64,000 nucleotides of DNA from Alphaproteobacteria bacterium (GTDB taxonomy: Bacteria; Pseudomonadota; Alphaproteobacteria; Micavibrionales; Micavibrionaceae). Shown here piece after piece: positions 4,170-59,449 of this stretch. A program made the position numbers and the translations under genes. The stretch spans positions 87,871 through 151,870 of the forward strand of contig NVUR01000001.1 in the NCBI GenBank assembly GCA_002401965.1, given 5' to 3'. The notes below the pieces were generated by a model. That model was not told the origin of the DNA and ran no database searches. It saw only the letters and a list, made by a program, of their open reading frames with translations. Positions within the stretch are counted from its first letter, which is position 1; each line of letters opens with the position of its first letter.

Positions 4170-7100
4170 TCACGGTGTTGTTACTGGCGTTGACGGCGTT
4201 GACGCACCACCTGGGCTTGTATTACCACTGGAAGGTTTTGCGCCTGTCGTCGCCCCAGCTACCTGACCACCAACACTCTTACCAAGACCACCGCCTAATT
4301 TCACAACCGCACCTGCGGCCTGATTACCCATTGTCATACCACCCATTGCGGCATAACGACTAAGGCTGTCCACTTGATCTTGATTAATATCACCAAACGA
4401 AGACACACCCGCACCTGCCCAGCGTAATATATTATCCGGAATTCTATCTATCAACTTAAACGATGCCAAAGCCATCATATAACAAACAATCGTATAGATA
4501 ATAGTGAAGAAAAACTGGTCAATTATACCACGTTGGAAACGCGCATCATTCACAGAAGTCATATTCAAGATATCTCCAGTCACACTTGATGCATCCCCCG
4601 CAACATTAGAGACCACAAGATCCCAAATCAAATTCAAAATTTGTACCTGTGTTGAAAAAATAACAACCGCCGCAACCAAACCTATGACCGTCAAAATAGG
4701 CCTTATAAATATTTCTAAAATCAAAAAATATCCGTTTTGCGCCGAATCACCAGGTAAACCATCACCATCAATACGTAAATGCGCCAAAGCCCATAGCGGT
4801 ACACCGACCATCGCCTCAAAAATCGCCTTGATCCACGACGCCGCCGCAAAATAAAAATACACAAACGGCAAGAACGGTAAAACATAGAATAAGACAAAAC
4901 CAGCCGTCAGCCCCATAAACGCCGTTGACAATAAAACCTGACTAGCCGCCTCTGAAAGTGCGGCGATTTTACTATTCTTCTCCATAACACCCGCCATACC
5001 GCCAAGAAATGCACTACCGGTCGCGCCCGCCAAATTCCGAACCGCAGAATCAACAAGCCCCTTTCCAACCATGATAAGTTGCACCATAGGATTCAAATGA
5101 GCGTTCGACGTACGCATCGCCGCCAAGCCGGACGTCCCGAATAACCGATTCAAAACATCCATAAAAACATTCTGATAATTAATTCGGCCTTTATCATCGA
5201 AACTCTTGGCATCATTATTCCAATACTCAAACACACCTGATAACCCTAACGCAACCTTATATGGCTGAGTCATAGATTTATAACCCTCTGGCGTATCTTT
5301 ACCGGATTGCGCCTTCGTAGACATCGTAAACTGCCTTTTATATTCGACATTTTCATTACTTTTTCGATTTTGCTTACGCACTTCTTCCATTGCAAGGGGA
5401 TACAAATCCATATAGGGAACCGCCTGCACACCATCAATCCAGCCACCATTCGTTTCGGCAAGTTTGCTATAAAAAATACCGGCACCAACCCAACCATAAC
5501 TTCGATCCACAGCGGTATGCTCCTCGGCTGTAGAATTCAAGACATGATCCCCCCATGCGGTTCTTATCGCATCCAAAAGATCATCTGTATATTCACTAAT
5601 TTTCTCCTGTTTCCATGCCGCCTCTGGTGTTGCCCGCACTTCACATTCTGCTACAGTTGCAACGAATCCTGGGAAAATACTTCCCACACCAGCCAAAGGC
5701 CCCAGCCCCAACCCTGTTGCTTCGTTGCCCGTACAAAATGCCGTTTTCTCGGTTGACGCGCTCACAACTGCATCAACAATCAAAGACCGTGCAAACTGGC
5801 GCATTTCAATATCATCAAACCACATTTTTGCGACCATATCATAATATGTCTTCAACATATAATCCGCACCACCTCTAGAAAAAGAGGCCCCTCCGATATC
5901 AGCCAAAGAGGCAATCGGTATACGGATTTCTCCACATAGAGGTTTCACCAAACCAGGATTGCCAGTATGCTGACCGCTTGTCGCAGATGGCGTTATATAC
6001 TCCCCGAACCGAATAATGATATCACCACCATAATAAAAACCCAGCGCCTCCAAATAATCCGGCGTGGCACCATATGTCAACAGCAGGCGCTCTGTCGGAT
6101 CTCCTTGAAAAAGTATATTACCAGCAATCGCACCAGCAGGGTTAGATGTTTTTTGCTTTACCAAGAATGGTACAATTCTGAACGCAGTCTCCGTCGTGGG
6201 ACCATGATATCCCGCATCAACACCAAAATAATTTCCACCGGAAGGATTATCCATATTAGCACTCACGCGCAAATAAGAATATGCACAAGCATGTACAAGC
6301 GTCATCGCCTCAACAAGAGCTGTAAGATCCGGTGCCTCCGGAATGGCAAGTAAAGAATAGCGTTGTCCCATTGGCCGAGTATCTGATGTAGAAAATTGAG
6401 AATGCCCCACAACAGCATCATTAAACCCATTCCACCCCACCGTTGCGAAACTTGATCCATATTTTGCAGCATACAGCACGATATACTGACCAGAGTTCAG
6501 TGTCGCACCAACCCCCGCAACAGGCGCAGGCATTAACAACCCCAATGCAACAACCAATCGTATAGGCACCCAAACATTTTGAAAACGTTGCCCAAACGGC
6601 GTGCCGCTCACTGCAGTTTCAAAAACAATAACCACAATAAAATAAAGGAAAATCAGAACAGCAATCATAAGAAGGGCTGTCGAATAGAATCTAAACAACT
6701 GATGCAACGCGGCCTGAAAAGGTAACGGCATGATAGAAACCCCCGTTGCCGGCCCAACATTAGTAAACGGCACCCCTGCACTAAAATTCGTACAATTGGC
6801 AATCGTTGTTGTAGAACAGAAAACACCCGGGACACCAAAGACACGATCCAATAGGTTATAGGCAATATCCGACGCTGGATCAGGCGTATCAAACCACGAA
6901 AATGCCATGGCAGGCGAAACCACCAACGCATAAATCAAAATAAGAAACTGCGCCGCCAACATCACAACACCTGTCAACATCCCAAAATAAACGAAGATCT
7001 GATCGATATTTTTTCTTGAAAAAGTAAGATTGCGCGAAGCCTCTGTAATTACGTGACGTACACCAAAACGTCCGATGTTCTTCGAGGACAAGTACGGATG

Positions 7101-40778: not shown

Positions 40779-41561
40779 ATGGCTTTAAATGGAAAAACTG
40801 CACTTATCACTGGCTCAACCAGCGGCATAGGACTCGCCATCGCGCAAGGCTTCGCGCAACAAGGCATAAATATTATCCTGAACGGCTTCGGCGATCCGCA
40901 AGAAATAGAGGATATCCGAAAAAGTCTTGAGATAAACGGCAACAAAATCACTTACAGCAACGCTGACATGACAAAACCCGATGAAATCGTAAACATGATT
41001 CAAAGCGCAGAGCAAAAATTCGGGGCAATTGACATCCTCGTCAATAATGCAGGCATTCAACACGTATCGCCCATTGAAGACTTCCCACCTGAAAAATGGG
41101 ATGCGATTATGGCCATCAATTTATCCTCCGCTTTTCATACAACCCGCGCCGCAATCGGCGGTATGCGAAAAGCCGGATGGGGACGCATCATCAATATGTG
41201 TTCCGCGCACGGCCTTGTCGCCTCCCCCTATAAAGCTGCCTATGTCGCCGCTAAACACGGTATATTAGGTCTCACAAAAACAATCGCACTGGAAGTTGCA
41301 CAAGATAACATCACATGCAACGCAATCTGTCCGGGCTATGTCCGCACGCCTCTGGTTGAAAACCAAATCGCCGACACCGCCAAGGCCAGAGGAATCAGCG
41401 AAGAAGAGGTTATCCGTGATGTCCTACTCACCGCGCAATGGACAAAGAAATTCGTAACCGTGGAACAAATCTCCGGCATTGCCCTGTTCTTATGCTCAGA
41501 CAGCGCGGAAAATATAACAGGCATTGATTTACGCGTTGATGGTGGCTGGACCGCCGCTTAA
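40779..41561 (+). CDS. bdhA: 3-hydroxybutyrate dehydrogenase
   Basis: SDR with GKTALITGSTSGIGLAIA, NNAGIQH and YVAAKHG; the overall sequence is typical of BdhA. Confidence 0.9.
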   Translation: MALNGKTALITGSTSGIGLAIAQGFAQQGINIILNGFGDPQEIEDIRKSLEINGNKITYSNADMTKPDEIVNMIQSAEQKFGAIDILVNNAGIQHVSPIEDFPPEKWDAIMAINLSSAFHTTRAAIGGMRKAGWGRIINMCSAHGLVASPYKAAYVAAKHGILGLTKTIALEVAQDNITCNAICPGYVRTPLVENQIADTAKARGISEEEVIRDVLLTAQWTKKFVTVEQISGIALFLCSDSAENITGIDLRVDGGWTAA

Positions 41562-41573
41562 GTTTCAAGAATT

Positions 41574-41672
41574 AATCACTCATATCTTTATTTGGACAAG
41601 GCATGAGTGAAGCAGCGTATTCTTATACGTAATGAGCGAATAACGATGTTCCAAGTAAAGATATGAATGATT
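41574..41672. repeat. ~100-nt imperfect palindromic element, copy A
   Basis: The 5' arm AATCACTCATATCTTTATTTGGACA is complementary to the 3' arm TGTTCCAAGTAAAGATATGAATGATT. The central hairpin is GCGTAT-tctt-ATACGT. It shares the blocks ACAAGGCATGAG and AACGNTGT with copies at 52571 and 59347. Confidence 0.6.
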
Positions 41673-43028
41673 ATGTATGATGTAGATTTATTTGTGATCG
41701 GCGCAGGCTCCGGCGGTGTACGTGCAGCGCGCATAGCCGCAGGCCATGGCGTAAAAGTCGCGCTGGCTGAAGAACGATTTTATGGCGGTACGTGTGTAAA
41801 TGTTGGTTGCGTCCCCAAAAAACTTATGACCTATGTCGCTGGATATGAAAGCAGCATGCGCGATGCGCAGGGCTATGGCTGGGACATTGGCGAACGTACG
41901 CTGGACTGGACAAAGTTCATCACGCAAAAAAATACAGAAATTGAACGCCTCAACGGTATTTATGAAAATATGCTTGAAAACGCAGGCGTACAACTCCACT
42001 GGGGCACCGCAACCATCATCGATCCGCATACCGTAAGTATAAACGGAGAAAACATCACCGCAGAGCGTATCCTGATCGCAACAGGCGGCAAAATCTCCGT
42101 CCCCGATATCGAAGGCGCACGCGAACACGGCATAACATCCGACGACATATTCTATCTGGAGGAAAAACCAAAAACTCTGATTGTCGCAGGTGTGGGTTAT
42201 ATCGGATTGGAGTTCGCCGGAATATTTAATCAGCTTGGCACGGACGTACACGTTATATACCGCCGCGACACCATCTTAAACGAAGGATTTGACGGCGATG
42301 TACGCACGTTTTTGCATCAAGAAATGACCAAAAAAGGTCTCCACTTCCATCCAAAAACCAACATCTTACGTGTTGAGAAAACCGATAAAGGCGTAACCGT
42401 ACATCTTGATGACGGCAAAACAATAAAAGCCGATCAAGTCCTGTTCGCCACAGGACGTACGCCCAATACAAACAACCTCGGACTGGAAAATGTCGGGGTT
42501 GAATGCAATAAGGGCGGCGCGATCATCGTTAATAAAGATGAACAAACAAACGTACCCTCCATCTATGCCGTTGGCGATGTCACAGACCGCGTTGCCTTAA
42601 CGCCCGTTGCCTTGGCAGAAGGACACGCCCTCGTCGATCGTCTGTACGCCAAAAGCAACCGCCATATTTCCTACGAAAACATCCCGAGCGCAGTGTTTTC
42701 CGACCCAAACGTCTCGCAAATCGGCCTCACGGAAGAACAAGCACAGGCACAATACCCTGATGAAATCGATATCTATAAATCCGACTTCCGCGCCATGAAA
42801 ATGATATTGGCGAACAGCGAAGAACGTACATTGATGAAACTCATCGTACACAGCAAAACCGACAAAGTTTTAGGACTGCACATGGTTGGCTCGGACGCAG
42901 GAGAAATCGTTCAGGGCTTTGCCGTTGCCATCATTGCCGGCGCAACCAAGGCTGACTTTGATCGCACCATCGGCATCCACCCGACCAGCGCCGAAGAATT
43001 CGTCACTATGCGCACAAAATCGAGCTAG
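41667..43028 (+). CDS. gor: Glutathione-disulfide reductase
   Basis: FVIGAGSGGVRAAR and the redox centre GGTCVNVGCVPKK, with the C-terminal HPTSAEE motif. The start is at 41667 or 41673. Confidence 0.92.
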   Translation: MIMYDVDLFVIGAGSGGVRAARIAAGHGVKVALAEERFYGGTCVNVGCVPKKLMTYVAGYESSMRDAQGYGWDIGERTLDWTKFITQKNTEIERLNGIYENMLENAGVQLHWGTATIIDPHTVSINGENITAERILIATGGKISVPDIEGAREHGITSDDIFYLEEKPKTLIVAGVGYIGLEFAGIFNQLGTDVHVIYRRDTILNEGFDGDVRTFLHQEMTKKGLHFHPKTNILRVEKTDKGVTVHLDDGKTIKADQVLFATGRTPNTNNLGLENVGVECNKGGAIIVNKDEQTNVPSIYAVGDVTDRVALTPVALAEGHALVDRLYAKSNRHISYENIPSAVFSDPNVSQIGLTEEQAQAQYPDEIDIYKSDFRAMKMILANSEERTLMKLIVHSKTDKVLGLHMVGSDAGEIVQGFAVAIIAGATKADFDRTIGIHPTSAEEFVTMRTKSS

Positions 43029-50179: not shown

Positions 50180-52138
50180 TTGATTCTCCTTATGTCCATA
50201 AGAAATAAAATAGACCTAAAGCCACAAATATCTGCCCTCGCACGACCACAGGCAGAACACGCGCGCTGTGCCATTAACGAAGATGGCACAATCATTTACG
50301 CGAATGAGGCTTTCTATCAGCTCTGCGGGATCAACGAAGGGCAACGCAATTACGCGCTCGATATCTTTACATTCTCGGAAAATGTTCTGGACGATATACA
50401 TGACATCACCACCCTGCCTAAAGGCGATCACGATGTCCATATTAACGGCAATCCAATCATCAGTGGCTTTCACTTTGACTGGCTGAGTACTTCGGATGAT
50501 AAGCGTTACCTTATTGCCTCGGCAACAGATGATGCCTTAGAAAGTGATCTGGAGGGCGACCTCAACCTGCTCATCACAAAAATACAAAACTCTGCCGCAC
50601 GCATAGAAACAACCGCCGATAATGTCATAGACATAAAGCCCACAGCTAACGATTTCGCAGAATTTGTCCTGATGACACATGACATCATGATTACCACTGA
50701 TGAACAGGGGCGAATCATAAACGCAAATAACGCCTTTCTGGAGAGCTTTGGTTACACCTCGAATGAGCTTAGAGGCGCATCTTTCCTCAATTTATTTAAT
50801 CACGAGGACAGATCGACAGTCCGCAATACAATGCTGAGCCTGACCTATAACGCAAACAAAGAAAATAATTCCGACCAAATTATCGACTTCGAATCACGCA
50901 TTCTAACGCGCGGGAAACAGGCACGTTGGGTTGAGTTCCGCCAGAAATGCGTCAATGGTAAAATCTATGCCTTAGGGCGCGACATCACCAACATAAAACA
51001 GCAACAAAGTAACCTAGAGAGACGTCAAAAACAACTCTCCGAAGCCGAAGCCATCGGGCGTATGGGGCATTGGCACTGGTTGATTGGTGAAGATAATATC
51101 TCATGGTCAGAGGAAATATTCCGCATCTTCGGCGTTGACCAAAACCAATATAAACCCTGCATCAATGGTCTGACCGACCTGATTCATAAACGTGATTTAG
51201 GGCGCGTTGTGCAAGTTTTTCAACGCGCCATCATCGAAGAAAAAAACTATGATATGGAATTCCGCATTGTCCGCCCAGGCGGCGATATCCGCTTTATCAT
51301 GTGTGAAGGACGCTGCGAAAAAGATGACACTGGTGAGATCATCGCCCTCTACGGCATCATGCAAGACATGACAGAGCGCATGCTCTACGAACAAGAGCTA
51401 CGCCAAGCCAAGGACGCCTCAGAACAAGCCTACGCCGCAAAATCACGCTTCCTCGCTAATATGAGCCACGAACTGCGTACGCCTTTAAATGCAGTGATCG
51501 GATTTTCCGAAATGATCGAATCACAAATGCTGGGGCCGATCTTTAACGAAAAATACATCGAATACGCCACCAGCATCAAAGACAGTGGAAAACACCTGCT
51601 TGACCTGATTAGTGATATTCTCGACATGTCCAAAATCGAAGCAGGCAAGCATACGCTCGATCTGGAAGAGATTAACATCAAAGATATCATTGATCGCGCC
51701 ATCCACATGATTAATGGACGCGCCGCAGAACAAGAAATATCACTACGTACACCTGAGCCCGAAGAAAGTGACATCAATATTATCGGCGATAGACGCGCTT
51801 TAACACAAATCTTGCTTAATCTACTATCAAATGCGGTGAAATTCACCCCTGCTCATGGCTCTGTCTGGATTGAATGCTGTAAAAAGGACACGTACATCTC
51901 TTTAAAAGTCTGTGATACAGGTACAGGCATTCCACCAAATAAACTCGCCTCTGTTTTACGCCCCTTCGAACAAGTATCATCGCAATATACCCGCGATCAC
52001 GAAGGCACTGGTCTTGGGCTATCCATTACCAAAAAATTGATTGAGCTTCATAACGGTTCTATCCATATTGAATCATCTATTGATGTTGGTACAACCGTCA
52101 GTGTACGCCTACCTTATGGCATAAATACAGCAGAATAA
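50180..52138 (+). CDS. Cytoplasmic PAS-PAS sensor histidine kinase
   Basis: H-box FLANMSHELRTPLNAV and N/G1/G2 boxes (LLNLLSNAVKF, DTGTGI, GTGLGLSI), with two PAS-like regions and no TM helix. The ORF track start is a TTG at 50180; the first ATG is at 50192. No response regulator is adjacent. Confidence 0.88.
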   Translation: MILLMSIRNKIDLKPQISALARPQAEHARCAINEDGTIIYANEAFYQLCGINEGQRNYALDIFTFSENVLDDIHDITTLPKGDHDVHINGNPIISGFHFDWLSTSDDKRYLIASATDDALESDLEGDLNLLITKIQNSAARIETTADNVIDIKPTANDFAEFVLMTHDIMITTDEQGRIINANNAFLESFGYTSNELRGASFLNLFNHEDRSTVRNTMLSLTYNANKENNSDQIIDFESRILTRGKQARWVEFRQKCVNGKIYALGRDITNIKQQQSNLERRQKQLSEAEAIGRMGHWHWLIGEDNISWSEEIFRIFGVDQNQYKPCINGLTDLIHKRDLGRVVQVFQRAIIEEKNYDMEFRIVRPGGDIRFIMCEGRCEKDDTGEIIALYGIMQDMTERMLYEQELRQAKDASEQAYAAKSRFLANMSHELRTPLNAVIGFSEMIESQMLGPIFNEKYIEYATSIKDSGKHLLDLISDILDMSKIEAGKHTLDLEEINIKDIIDRAIHMINGRAAEQEISLRTPEPEESDINIIGDRRALTQILLNLLSNAVKFTPAHGSVWIECCKKDTYISLKVCDTGTGIPPNKLASVLRPFEQVSSQYTRDHEGTGLGLSITKKLIELHNGSIHIESSIDVGTTVSVRLPYGINTAE

Positions 52139-52199: not shown

Positions 52200-52570
52200 T
52201 GCCTATAAGACCGGTTAGCATGAGAAGACCTCAGACCGTCGGCACCGCCCATCAGCCTTGGGTGATAAGTCCTACGCAGGAAAATTCATGCCTTTTTTAA
52301 GGCTACGCGCAATCTATGGGCGCCCATTCTTGTATCAATGGTGATATGAAGAAATAAAGAGATGAAAGCAAGAAAATCCACGAAAAACAGGATAGAAACA
52401 AGAAAAACACTCAGGCGACCCCGCCCCTTTTTATCATCCGCACACCAGCGAAGCCTTTTTGTCATCCCGAGCGAGCGCAGCGCCGAGGGATCTTACACCC
52501 GCACCACAAAAAACAGCTTACGCCATTCCGTATTTGAGATAACATTGGAGGATAGAAAATACAAAAAGCG

Positions 52571-52671
52571 TAGCCAATGATATTTTCTTTTCTACAAGGC
52601 ATGAGCGGCGATGCGTATTCTTATACGCGAGACGTGATATAACGCTGTAGAAAAGGAAAGATCGAAGGCTA
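52571..52671. repeat. ~100-nt imperfect palindromic element, copy B
   Basis: The 5' arm TAGCCAATGATATTTTCTTTTCTACA is complementary to the 3' arm TGTAGAAAAGGAAAGATCGAAGGCTA. The central hairpin is GCGTAT-tctt-ATACGC. The internal blocks are the same as in copy A. Confidence 0.6.
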
Positions 52672-52722: not shown

Positions 52723-53655
52723 CTAAACACGGCTTTTCAGAATAGAGGACGCGTAATTTTCTGCGTCTAGACACCCTTGCAGCCCTTCTTTATAACTGGG
52801 ATATTTTAGTTTTATGCCAAGTTCATTTTTGATTTTATCATTGCGTACGCGTTTATTATCCGCATAAAAACTAATCGTTATGGGCGCTAAATCAACATCA
52901 TCAAAGCGTTGAAGGGGGGGCGGTTCAATCCTCAATAAAGAACAAGCATAACCAATCACTTCATGGCTGGGGGCGGGCATATCATCGCAAATATTATAGA
53001 TTTCTCCAGCTTTCGGCGCAGACATAGAGGCCAATAAAATATGTGCTAAATCCTCAACATGAATACGGCTAAAAACATGATCTGGCTTATCAATCCGGCG
53101 CGCAATGCCCGAGCGTACAGAATCAAGTGCACTACGTCCAGGGCCATAAATCCCTGCTAAACGAAAAATATGAACAGGCAATTTATAGGTCTGAAACAAA
53201 GAAAGCCATTGTCTTTCTACATCTAAACGCTTCGCACCACGTTTCGTGATTGGACGCGCTTCTGATGTTTCATCAACCCATTTTCCACCCCGATCACCAT
53301 AAGGACTGGTCGTGGATAAATAGCCGATCCACTCCAATTTCGGCAAATCAAGAATATCTTGTGCATGTAGGTTAAAACTAGGATCACCATCACGTGAAGG
53401 AGGCGTACAGATCAATAAATGTGTAACATCCCGCAACATATAAAGTGGGTCAGGCAAAGGCGCATCATAATCGAATAAATGCGCCTTTACACCGCGCGCG
53501 CGTAAATCTTTTCTCTTATCCCGATCACGGGTTGTGCCTGACACACGCCAACCACCGCGTTGCATCAATTCATGTCCGATATAGTCACAGCTATAGCCAT
53601 AACCGAAACAAAATAAATGTTTTTCCGTGCTCTCCAATGCCCTATTCCCTAACAT
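52723..53655 (-). CDS. NAD(P)-binding Rossmann-fold epimerase/dehydratase-like (SDR family) protein
   Basis: N-terminal FCFGYGYS dinucleotide-fold-like segment and a conserved alphaproteobacterial SDR-like body. The function is not resolved. Confidence 0.75.
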   Translation of the reverse strand: MLGNRALESTEKHLFCFGYGYSCDYIGHELMQRGGWRVSGTTRDRDKRKDLRARGVKAHLFDYDAPLPDPLYMLRDVTHLLICTPPSRDGDPSFNLHAQDILDLPKLEWIGYLSTTSPYGDRGGKWVDETSEARPITKRGAKRLDVERQWLSLFQTYKLPVHIFRLAGIYGPGRSALDSVRSGIARRIDKPDHVFSRIHVEDLAHILLASMSAPKAGEIYNICDDMPAPSHEVIGYACSLLRIEPPPLQRFDDVDLAPITISFYADNKRVRNDKIKNELGIKLKYPSYKEGLQGCLDAENYASSILKSRV

Positions 53656-57968: not shown

Positions 57969-58877
57969 TTATTTACTTTTATTGCGGAATTTAGTGTTTT
58001 TTGACGTATTTCTTCTATTTTCTTGTGATTTTGACGATGATTTTTCAAAATTTTTGTTATTTTCACGAAACGTACGCTTTGCCTTCTCTGGATCTGTACG
58101 TTTATTTAACTTAATATTATTCTCCCGAAAATATTCCCCGATTTGATTACGCATCACGCCGACGCTTACTTCACTGACAGAACCGCGTGACATCTTGCCC
58201 AAAGAAAACGGACCATAATCTGTACGAATTAATCGTGTAACACTTAAACCCAACGCTTCTAAAACACGACGAATTTCTCTGTTCTTTCCTTCACGCAAGG
58301 TCATTGTTATCCATGAATTTGCGCCTGCACTCTCGCGCTCATCAGGCTGCACATCTAACGTCGCCTCGATTGATTTATAACGTACACCCTCAACAGTAAT
58401 CCCGTTTTTCAAGGATAGCAGCCGTTTTTCATTCACTCTACCGTTCACACGTACGCGATATTTACGCTTCCACCCCGTATCAGGTAACTCAAGATGACGG
58501 GCTAGTCCACCATCATTGGTCAGTAAGATCAACCCCTCCGTACTCAAATCCAAGCGTCCAACACTCACCACACGCGGCATCGAATCCGGCAATTCTTCAA
58601 ACACCGTAGTACGCCCTTGTTCATCTCTATGCGTTGTCACAAGACCAGGCGGCTTATGATATAAGAACAGCCGTGTTTGCTCCATAGACGGCAAAGCCTT
58701 GCCATCAACGATAATTTTATCATCCTCAGTCACATTCAAGGCAGGGGAATCAATGGTCTTGCCATTCACTTTAACGCGGCTTTCACCAATCCAACGCTCC
58801 GCATCACGGCGCGAGCAAAGACCCGCGCGTGCCATTCTCTTTGCAATCCGTTCGCCTTTATGCTTTTCTTCACTCAT
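57969..58877 (-). CDS. rluB: 23S rRNA pseudouridine synthase, RluB/RsuA family
   Basis: S4 domain (ERIAKRMARAGLCSRRDAE), the catalytic GRLD motif and a Lys/Arg-rich C-terminal tail. The start was set at the ATG at 58877 (MSEEKHK); the ORF track extends further upstream. Confidence 0.88.
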   Translation of the reverse strand: MSEEKHKGERIAKRMARAGLCSRRDAERWIGESRVKVNGKTIDSPALNVTEDDKIIVDGKALPSMEQTRLFLYHKPPGLVTTHRDEQGRTTVFEELPDSMPRVVSVGRLDLSTEGLILLTNDGGLARHLELPDTGWKRKYRVRVNGRVNEKRLLSLKNGITVEGVRYKSIEATLDVQPDERESAGANSWITMTLREGKNREIRRVLEALGLSVTRLIRTDYGPFSLGKMSRGSVSEVSVGVMRNQIGEYFRENNIKLNKRTDPEKAKRTFRENNKNFEKSSSKSQENRRNTSKNTKFRNKSK

Positions 58878-59343
58878 GACTGATCCTTTCACAGAAAACG
58901 ACCATAGCTGTATGCGCGCCGCATTGGAAGAGGCAAATCGCGCTGCTGCACGTGATGAAGTGCCTATTGGTGCAATTATCACGGATGAGAAGGGTGGAAT
59001 CGTTGCACGTACAGGCAATAAAACTCGCGAATTAAGCGATCCTTGCGCCCATGCCGAAATTCTAGCCATCCGTACCGCTTGTGAGAGCATAAATTCACAA
59101 CGTATTCCGAATTACACTTTATACGTCACCTTGGAACCCTGCGCCATGTGCGCAGCAGCCATATCTTTCGCCCGCATTTCCCGTGTGGTTTTCGGCGCGT
59201 CCGACCAAAAAGGCGGCGGCATCTTGCATGGCGGGGAATTCTACACCCAACCAACCTGCCACCATAAACCAAGCATACAACACGGTTTAATGGCAGAAAA
59301 GTGCGGAGAAATTCTAAAGGCATTTTTCAAACGAAAGCGCTGA
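58876..59343 (+). CDS. tadA: tRNA adenosine(34) deaminase
   Basis: EVPIGAII, HAEILAIR and TLEPCAMC zinc-binding motifs. The start was set at the ATG at 58876 (MTDPFTEN). Confidence 0.9.
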   Translation: MTDPFTENDHSCMRAALEEANRAAARDEVPIGAIITDEKGGIVARTGNKTRELSDPCAHAEILAIRTACESINSQRIPNYTLYVTLEPCAMCAAAISFARISRVVFGASDQKGGGILHGGEFYTQPTCHHKPSIQHGLMAEKCGEILKAFFKRKR

Positions 59344-59346
59344 AAT

Positions 59347-59449
59347 TATAATCGTTTAATTTTATTTTTCACAAGACGCGAAGAATGCCGCGTATAATTG
59401 ATACGCAAACGATGGGCAACGCTGTGAAAGATAAAAGTAGACGATTATA
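59347..59449. repeat. ~100-nt imperfect palindromic element, copy C
   Basis: The 5' arm TATAATCGTTTAATTTTATTTTTCACA is complementary to the 3' arm TGTGAAAGATAAAAGTAGACGATTATA. The central hairpin is GCGTAT-aattg-ATACGC. It fills the tadA/purD convergent gap. Confidence 0.6.

Follow-up and report, generated by a model that had tools for sequence, protein, structure and literature searches.

Three imperfect palindromes on the + strand of a 64-kb stretch of DNA from a bacterium of the family Micavibrionaceae (contig NVUR01000001.1, positions 87,871 to 151,870; hereafter "the window"), termed here copies A, B, and C, are very probably old, diverged copies of a non-autonomous MITE (a miniature transposable element with inverted repeats) of ~105 nt, homologous to the short form of the Correia element (CREE/NEMIS) of Neisseria. 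Work on Correia elements as gene regulators in Neisseria, acting through promoters, integration host factor (IHF) sites, and RNase III targets, dates back to 1986-88. The family to which the three copies belong is a transposon-like MITE of the Correia type; it does not constitute a novel class of regulatory RNA. Its novelty lies in a host range that includes another bacterial class, in the free variation of its arms with retention of core and pairing, and in two biases of orientation. Three odd palindromes are thereby explained for annotation, and a homologous family that still proliferates in predatory Micavibrio-like bacteria offers independent genomes in which to look for a shared mobilising enzyme.

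Homology to the Correia elements of Neisseria

CREE exist in forms of ~107 and ~155 bp, with TA termini, a target duplication, and processing by RNase III (PMC2229807; PMC10969869). They can create promoters, and their transposase is unknown (PMC2649163; PMC2229807; PMC10969869; PMC5399841), the mobilising mechanism being described as undetermined (PMC2649163). Variants of the terminal repeat include tatagtggattaacaaaaatcaggacaa and tatagtggattaacaaaaaccggtacgg, and the core has a direction, one of its ends being TCAGGACAA and the other CCGGTACGG (PMC2649163). Within the searchable literature CREE are described as confined to Neisseria (PMC5399841), and clusters of MITEs are reported to be largely genus-bound (PMC11602168).

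Two types of models made from the sequences of the Micavibrio-type family recognize CREE over their full length. An nhmmer profile of 53 copies aligns CREE of 106-107 nt, taken from the supplement of PMC2649163, from the first base to the last (positions 3-109 of 111 of the hidden Markov model, HMM) with E = 0.002-0.04 in a 4 Mb decoy database, in which no decoy reached E = 10 or lower. A covariance model (R1), built solely from 53 Micavibrio-type copies and used to search 26 IMG/VR contigs that carry the CREE repeat, matches Neisseria-type CREE over model positions 1-111, with the best hit at 58.9 bits (E = 2.4e-12) and six more between 5e-9 and 1e-7. The long CREE forms of ~160 nt are also matched (E about 6e-5); the model accommodates their additional 50 nt as an insertion. 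This homology contradicts the original prediction, made from the window alone, that the palindromes represent a novel kind of family. A scan of Rfam returned no gathering-level match in the window, only generic miRNA-precursor hairpins (16-26 bits vs cut-offs of 68-101), and there is no CREE entry in Rfam.

The copies in the window

Copies A, B, and C share one architecture, as the original prediction had correctly described: a T-rich 5' arm ending in ACA is followed by AAG(G/A)C..GA, a central GCGTAT-(TCTT/AATTG)-ATACG, the sequence AACG(A/C)TGT, and an A-rich 3' arm complementary to the 5' arm. They are the only inverted repeats of at least 16 nt within 150 nt in the whole window. Their pairwise identity is just 60-65%, yet every copy is self-complementary. 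Folded as RNA they reach -34, -38.6, and -37 kcal/mol, respectively (z = -6.4 to -7.1; 0 of 200 shuffles fold as well), and for each of them the fold of the + strand is more stable than that of the - strand. The covariance model of the family scores the window copies at 86-95 bits on the top strand vs 25 bits on the bottom strand. Neither an nhmmer profile search nor a covariance-model search run without filters detected a fourth copy in the window. Copy A is 82-85% identical to copies in metagenome-assembled genomes (MAGs) of Micavibrio sp.

The low pairwise identity, and nothing else, would favour the explanation that these are palindromes formed by chance or unrelated hairpins peculiar to their loci. 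This we regard as practically inconceivable and in fact already refuted, considering that the window has only three long inverted repeats in 64 kb, that all three attain such scores on the family model, that 60 further copies exist elsewhere, and that no shuffle equals the number of hairpin motifs in the window (5 observed vs 0.09 expected).

Distribution and mobility of the family

We scanned one genome per bacterial species (185,579 species genomes) for the exact pattern ACAAG-N14-GCGTAT-N3-6-ATACG-N10-15-AACGNTG. The scan returned 51 loci (L001-L051). With one exception these originate from MAGs, whose labels are Micavibrio sp. and "Alphaproteobacteria bacterium" apart from two that read Bdellovibrionales and Deltaproteobacteria. 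NCBI taxonomy places Micavibrio in Bdellovibrionales, which accounts for at least the former of these two labels. The locus from Cohnella (L031) has the core pattern but neither arms nor an HMM match, and was rejected as a chance occurrence. The family is hosted by about 20 Micavibrio-like genomes.

The original prediction had left it to a genome-wide model search whether more copies exist; in the loci and the window together the nhmmer profile detects 63 copies with E<1e-9, along with a small number that are truncated. All 63 are ~95-112 nt long, and most terminate in TATAGTC...GACTATA. In the termini that we inspected TA adjoins (G/A)TC...GA(C/T), giving the form (TA)TA-(G/A)TC...GA(C/T)-TA(TA), in which the outer TA is variable.

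The MAG JAOUOR01 contains at least 26 copies, which fall into two main subfamilies, and pairs of copies at its different loci are 92-97% identical. Comparison of relatives reveals filled and empty sites. In locus L029 an element lies between an upstream open reading frame (ORF) and a ybaB-family gene, whereas the orthologous spot in L042 is empty and consists of a 17-nt spacer, AAGGAGACTATCAC, ahead of the ATG. Likewise, L017 is devoid of the elements that L022 and L033 carry in orthologous spacers; these junctions were read by eye, as MAFFT mishandled the large insertion. The junctions in L042 and in L080, a locus of a relative that is discussed below, would fit an insertion at a TA located after the ribosome-binding site and before the start codon. 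None of the first 51 loci holds an orthologue of a window site, a look-up of the exact Gor protein gave no match, and the metagenome scan gave the site of copy A only. Judged by these sequence comparisons, the near-identical copies and the differences in presence or absence between relatives show that the family spreads within the genomes of Micavibrio-like bacteria. The original prediction had taken the complementary variation of the arms as an argument against three recent copies of one mobile element; the near-identical copies within one genome and the empty orthologous sites nevertheless show the family to be mobile. Covariation of the arms arises between subfamilies of a mobile element, and it is therefore no argument against mobility.

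Some loci deserve a separate mention. In L047 (1926-2027) and L048 (64-166) an element is located just past the stop codon of orthologous genes (53% identical, both on the - strand of their locus), in opposite orientations, which could reflect two independent insertions or an inversion; an inversion of CREE is mentioned in PMC10969869 by way of a reference cited there. In two distant MAGs (L007: 2337-2441 and L021: 5607-5709) a co-oriented element is found 5-16 nt upstream of an orthologous gene of ~454 aa (55% identical), which could be an insertion retained from long ago or a target that is hit repeatedly. At L030 (5038-5077) we found a lone 3' half of the element (AACACTGTGCAAAAATAAATGGGAATGACTATA) that begins at the stop codon of a gene, with the 5' half missing; it was considered as the end of an insertion sequence (IS), and this was rejected in favour of a truncated copy just after the stop codon. 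Finally, a T7-like phage contig from IMG/VR (L053; portal, scaffold, and major capsid proteins identified by Pfam) has a short-armed copy at 6313-6420 on the - strand (75.7 bits), which overlaps the last ~25 codons of the capsid ORF; the portal gene of this contig is split into two ORFs. A phage could be the carrier of the element between hosts.

Copy A and the start of gor

Copy A begins 12 nt past the stop codon of bdhA (41559-41561) and has the sense orientation relative to both bdhA and gor, two gene names that are confirmed by NCBIfam. As the original prediction stated, it covers the initiation region of gor: both candidate start codons, ATG 41667-41669 and ATG 41673-41675, lie in its 3' arm, and the A of the latter is the last base of the element. 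In the nearest relative by gor (L080, 79% protein identity), bdhA (1694-2476) is separated from gor (from 2492) by a 15-nt spacer, TAAATAGAGGTAAAT, with a ribosome-binding site AGAGGT and without an element. A set of 80 gor loci, 433 kb altogether, contains 0 copies according to the model, which doubles as a control of its specificity. In the window the junction reads TAA-GTTTCAAGAAT-[TA-ATCAC...GAATGAT-TA]-TG-TAT-GAT-GTA, and the N-termini of the Gor proteins align as MSNYDVDLFVIG (L080) and (MI)MYDVDLFVIG (window). The AGAGG-type ribosome-binding site is gone from the window gor; what is found upstream is a remnant, AAAGA, that resembles a weak Shine-Dalgarno sequence. The GGA motif typical of the subfamily of copy A has decayed in it to ATGAATGA, and a consensus scan detected no promoter-like site on the + strand within copy A.

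Comparison with L080 shows copy A to be an insertion into a bdhA-gor pair that is operon-like in this relative, i.e. a lineage-specific feature and not a conserved leader. The element would have inserted at a TA in the short operon spacer and displaced the native ribosome-binding site. In the simplest reading gor would be translated from a read-through transcript, with its initiation region locked in a ~25-bp stem until the latter is opened or cleaved. The start of gor lies inside the 3' arm and its Shine-Dalgarno sequence is weak; therefore translation of gor in the window lineage probably depends on opening or cleavage of the copy A hairpin, and a regulatory role of copy A at gor is plausible by analogy with CREE. 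More generally, the read-through RNA of a copy is predicted to fold into a ~25-bp stem, similar in kind to those in CREE-containing mRNAs at which RNase III binds or cuts, and from this analogy we infer that the element may alter the stability and translation of neighbouring genes. The start codon of gor is here derived from the element, which can mislead gene callers and operon predictions.

Folding, covariation, and strand asymmetry

RNAalifold applied to the 53 copies predicts one long stem interrupted by a conserved core, with 25 pairs, 16 of which exhibit two-sided changes. Paired cells of the alignment amount to 93.4%, as compared to 77.0% after the letters of the 3' side are shuffled and to 30-44% after the partners are slid by 1-3 columns. 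Cells with two-sided changes number 230 vs 69 in the shuffles, and 0 of 500 shuffles reach the observed values. The original prediction that the arms differ between copies and stay complementary within each copy holds for these 53 copies. The ~25-nt arms vary in sequence between subfamilies with complementarity kept. The core, in turn, is conserved and asymmetric: it comprises ACA-AGGC, two covarying pairs, purine-rich loops, the 6-bp hairpin with a loop of 4-6 nt, and AACG(A/C)-TGT. The two covarying pairs (AU:36/GC:13 and UA:25/CG:23) are located inside the part of the core that had been supposed to be unpaired.

To compare the strands we used 40 clusters obtained at 85% identity. Among arm mismatches on the top strand, G·T (78) exceeds A·C (29; p = 2e-6), and in 36 of the 40 clusters the top strand gives the more stable RNA fold (means of -36.9 vs -29.7 kcal/mol). 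The local skew (C>G, A>T on the element strand) would push mutation on that strand towards A·C, and the excess of G·T would therefore speak for selection acting on the top strand in single-stranded form. The arms would stay complementary since only the copies able to form the hairpin propagate or persist, with the constraint acting on the top strand.

Genomic context and orientation

None of the copies is located inside a long ORF. By a simple ORF-based classification, 21 copies are in tandem spacers and co-oriented with the genes, 5 are antisense in tandem spacers, 15 lie in convergent spacers, and 9 in divergent ones; copy C, counted here as antisense, is truly convergent, and its reassignment changes the second and third of these numbers to 4 and 16. 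In 24 of 59 copies a co-oriented long ORF starts between -15 and +25 nt from the 3' end of the element. In 8 of these 24 the ATG takes its A from the terminal base of the element, and copy A of the window, L017, and L037, where the termini register 2 nt differently, are further cases. Roughly a fifth of all copies end precisely at a start codon. In several 3' arms GGA, GGGA, or GAGGA is present, 8-11 nt upstream of that ATG. No run of T follows the 3' arm in A, B, or C or in the family contexts, and the stems are AT-rich; lacking both a GC-rich stem and a T-run, the element was rejected as an intrinsic (Rho-independent) terminator, and the terminator role suggested in the original prediction has to be abandoned. 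Counts from promoter and terminator scans are at the background level.

These features have to be weighed against the possibility that the family consists of structured RNAs selected by the host, i.e. cis-regulatory leaders or 3'-end stabilisers, with copy A exerting translational control over gor. The strong covariation would suit such RNAs, as would the preference for G·U pairs over A·C mismatches on the transcribed strand, the co-orientation in tandem spacers (21 to 5), the abutment of start codons in about 1/5 of the copies with GGA/GGGA 8-9 nt upstream in several 3' arms, and the elements located 5-16 nt upstream of the orthologous 454-aa gene in L007 and L021. Nonetheless, we find this explanation improbable. 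Near-identical copies occur at unrelated loci of one genome, sites including that at gor are empty in relatives, and copies are found in convergent and divergent spacers as well; terminator activity is not expected of an element devoid of a T-tract, the GGA motif has decayed in copy A, and the family is homologous to a known transposon-like element. This explanation is compatible with secondary domestication of single copies, but it does not describe the family.

The second bias concerns base composition. With the coding effect removed, 47 of 54 cases have the top strand of the element on the C-rich strand, for which GC skew is negative, and the bias holds per class of ORF context (convergent 15/15, divergent 9/9, antisense tandem 5/5). 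For 58 of 63 copies the element strand has a positive AT skew. In the window the GC skew of the + strand is between -0.11 and -0.24 in every 4-kb bin, the AT skew is positive, and A, B, and C all lie on the + strand. The entire window appears to fall within one replichore, with the + strand as the C-rich strand. As a rule, the leading strand is G-rich, and the top strand of the element is therefore on the lagging strand, with the direction of replication inferred from the skew alone. This may result from fork-coupled insertion or from the loss of copies with the stronger hairpin on the lagging-strand template. For CREE in prophage contigs the orientation by local skew is 14/25, where the skew is a poor proxy for replication direction, and the table of CREE from strain FA1090 (PMC2649163) is given in one normalised orientation, which makes it unusable for this purpose.

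One may ask whether Correia-type elements move or survive at the replication fork in the form of one folded DNA strand, and not through a cut-and-paste transposase that recognises double-stranded terminal repeats. In such a model the arms need only be complementary, and orientation would follow the direction of replication. This agrees with the contrast between arms that vary freely from one subfamily to another and termini and an asymmetric core that are shared by Micavibrio-like bacteria and Neisseria, with the covarying pairs inside the core, with both skew biases in the family and the uniform orientation of the window copies, and with the lack of a DDE-type parent element in loci L001-L051. 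A precedent exists in IS200/IS605, whose transposition was reportedly found by Ton-Hoang and co-workers in 2010 to be coupled to the lagging-strand template. On the other hand, the better-folding top strand, being on the C-rich strand, is by the usual rule the template of the leading strand and not the exposed template of the lagging strand, and selection against stable hairpins on the latter could equally give the bias. Furthermore, neither an HUH nor another candidate enzyme was found, the TA flanks are typical of cut-and-paste elements of the IS630/mariner type, CREE in prophage contigs display no visible bias (with the caveat on local skew made above), and the direction of replication is known from skew only. 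We therefore hold this model to be rather doubtful, though less so than a host-selected RNA. Equally tentative is the broader proposal that Correia-type elements form an old, cross-class superfamily, in which the folded single strand is selected and orientation is coupled to replication direction. If it were true, these elements would move or survive by a hairpin-dependent, fork-associated mechanism and not by classical recognition of terminal repeats, and comparison of the proliferating Micavibrio-like genomes would offer a way to the enzyme by which Correia elements are mobilised. The transcription and replication biases, both measurable, constrain the mechanism.

Several points weigh against a Correia-type MITE. 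The empty sites come from relatives with 70-79% protein identity, too diverged to prove a 2-bp duplication, and each end of the element has two TAs, of which the one representing the target duplication is not distinguishable. No transposase or autonomous parent was found: an all-against-all BLASTP comparison of 700 ORFs from L001-L051 (~330 kb) gave only orthologues between MAGs and no multi-copy ORF, and the ORFs beside clustered copies (L030, L040) are housekeeping genes only. The arms of the family have just TATAGT and the inner GGACA(A) in common with the 26-nt Correia repeat. The invariance of ACAAG, GCGTAT/ATACG, and AACG.TG among the 53 copies is partly imposed by the retrieval pattern, although copies found by nhmmer alone, as well as CREE, still keep the core blocks with small changes. 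Finally, a simple cut-and-paste model of a MITE leaves the replication-orientation bias (47/54) unexplained.

Other features of the window

The window has a GC content of 45%, and its genes have relatives of the alphaproteobacterial type. Coordinates are collected in Table 1. Copy B is located 432 nt past the gene of a PAS histidine kinase (+ strand, ends at 52138); on its other side, at a distance of 51 nt, a convergent epimerase-like gene (- strand) ends at 52723. Copy C starts 3 nt past the stop codon of tadA (+ strand, 59341-59343), and its terminus contains the stop codon of purD (- strand, 59445-59447). Its 5' terminus, TATAAT, provides -10-like boxes on both strands, at about the background frequency. 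Lying between convergent genes, copies B and C would most simply be passengers at 3' ends, with C supplying purD with its stop codon.

Table 1. Coordinates of the palindromic elements, of the parts of copy A, and of the genes flanking it
Feature	Position in window	Strand	Context	Support
Copy A, whole element, TA-ATCAC...GAATGAT-TA	41573..41673	+	bdhA-gor spacer	nhmmer E=6e-19; covariance model 92.7 bits
Copy A, 5' arm, T-rich, ends in ACA	41573..41598	+		
Copy A, asymmetric conserved core (AGGC loop, two covarying pairs, purine-rich loops, AACGA loop)	41599..41646	+		
Copy A, apical hairpin GCGTAT-TCTT-ATACG	41615..41629	+		
Copy A, 3' arm	41647..41673	+	holds gor start codons	
Copy B, TA-GCCAATG...GAAGGC-TA	52571..52671	+	convergent spacer	nhmmer E=2e-19; covariance model 95.2 bits
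Copy C, TATAATCG...CGATTATA	59347..59449	+	convergent spacer tadA/purD	nhmmer E=5e-16; covariance model 86.4 bits
bdhA, 3-hydroxybutyrate dehydrogenase	40779..41561	+	upstream cistron reading into copy A	TIGR01963, 387 bits
gor, glutathione-disulfide reductase	41667..43028	+	start in/at end of copy A	NF004776, 607 bits

The longest-ORF calls for a pseudouridine synthase (- strand) and tadA (+ strand), which together span 57969-59343, overlap by ~390 nt, and the Pfam domains begin at about residue 80 and about residue 66 of the two ORFs, respectively. Both N-terminal extensions are probably spurious, and the two genes likely diverge from a point near 58880. The 430 nt that separate copy B from the histidine kinase gene also contain a GC-rich imperfect palindrome, GTCATCCCGAGCGAGCGCAGCGCCGAGGGATC (52461-52492), which occurs once in the window, has no match in Rfam, and resembles short GC-rich repeats seen in many genomes.

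Comparison with other known repeats

Integron attC sites, bounded by R''/R' sequences (RYYYAAC...GTTRRRY), were considered and rejected: the termini of the family are TA(T/G/A)... with no GTTRRRY. In addition, no integrase-like multi-copy ORF was seen in loci L001-L051; the window itself is not fully annotated. REP/BIME (REPIN) sequences resemble the family in being intergenic palindromes that are kept as hairpins, are strand-asymmetric, and persist for long. They differ in size (20-40 nt), in composition (GC-rich), in termini, and in being linked to a flanked RAYT gene; none was seen in the comparison of multi-copy ORFs from loci L001-L051.

RUP of Streptococcus pneumoniae and other MITEs derived from IS630 are likewise non-coding, ~107 bp long, and equipped with terminal inverted repeats and TA targets (PMC2229807). 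The repeats of RUP, however, match the transposase-bearing IS630-Spn1, whereas no parent IS is known for the Micavibrio-type family. Moreover, a repeat bound by a transposase is expected to be conserved, in contrast to the variable arms found here.

ERIC/IRU of enterobacteria are also imperfect palindromes (~127 bp) with TA at the termini; they are intergenic and transcribed, and their effects on mRNA depend on orientation (PMC10969869). On visual comparison, motifs of the ERIC inner arms, i.e. AAGGCGGCAAGCGAG, GAGCGA..GCC(AAC)GCA, and GAGCGAACGCAGCC..GCA, look similar to their counterparts in CREE and in the Micavibrio-type family. The ERIC consensus that we used was validated by its 94.5% identity to E. 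coli sequence. An ERIC copy from E. coli (L052: 1501-1627) was matched neither by the HMM (E up to 100) nor by the covariance model (E up to 1), and homology to ERIC is therefore not supported, the resemblance being kept as a visual lead; ERIC differs in its central part, and we do not claim membership of the family in ERIC/IRU. The label "REP/ERIC-like", used in the original prediction, came close to the truth.

CREE remain the closest known system. Unlike the Micavibrio-type family, they have the 26-bp repeat TATAG(C/T)GGATTAA(CAAAAA/ATTTAAA)(CCGGTACGG/TCAGGACAA) at both ends. One end of the core is ACG(A/C)TGTCC in the family where CREE have ACGCCGTACC, and the apical hairpin is GCGTAT/ATACG in the family vs a short GTAC/GTAC stem in CREE. 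The hosts belong to different bacterial classes (Micavibrio-like MAGs vs the genus Neisseria). The 155-bp form with an IHF site is absent among the 63 copies of the family, a feature that is not required for the short class of CREE. Promoter, IHF, and RNase III functions are known for Neisseria CREE only, and an orientation bias relative to GC skew is seen in the Micavibrio-type family. Both share their length, the TA-flanked termini TATAGT...ACTATA, inverted arms of ~25 nt, and an intergenic location, often adjoining start or stop codons. Both would form a long RNA hairpin if transcribed, with an apical hairpin of 4-6 bp and a loop of ~5 nt, and in both the core is directional, its inner ends bearing GGACAAGGC on one side and GCAACG.(C/T)GT on the opposite side. 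The family provides evidence that the core and the ability to form the hairpin, and not the sequence of the arms, constitute the conserved part of these elements.

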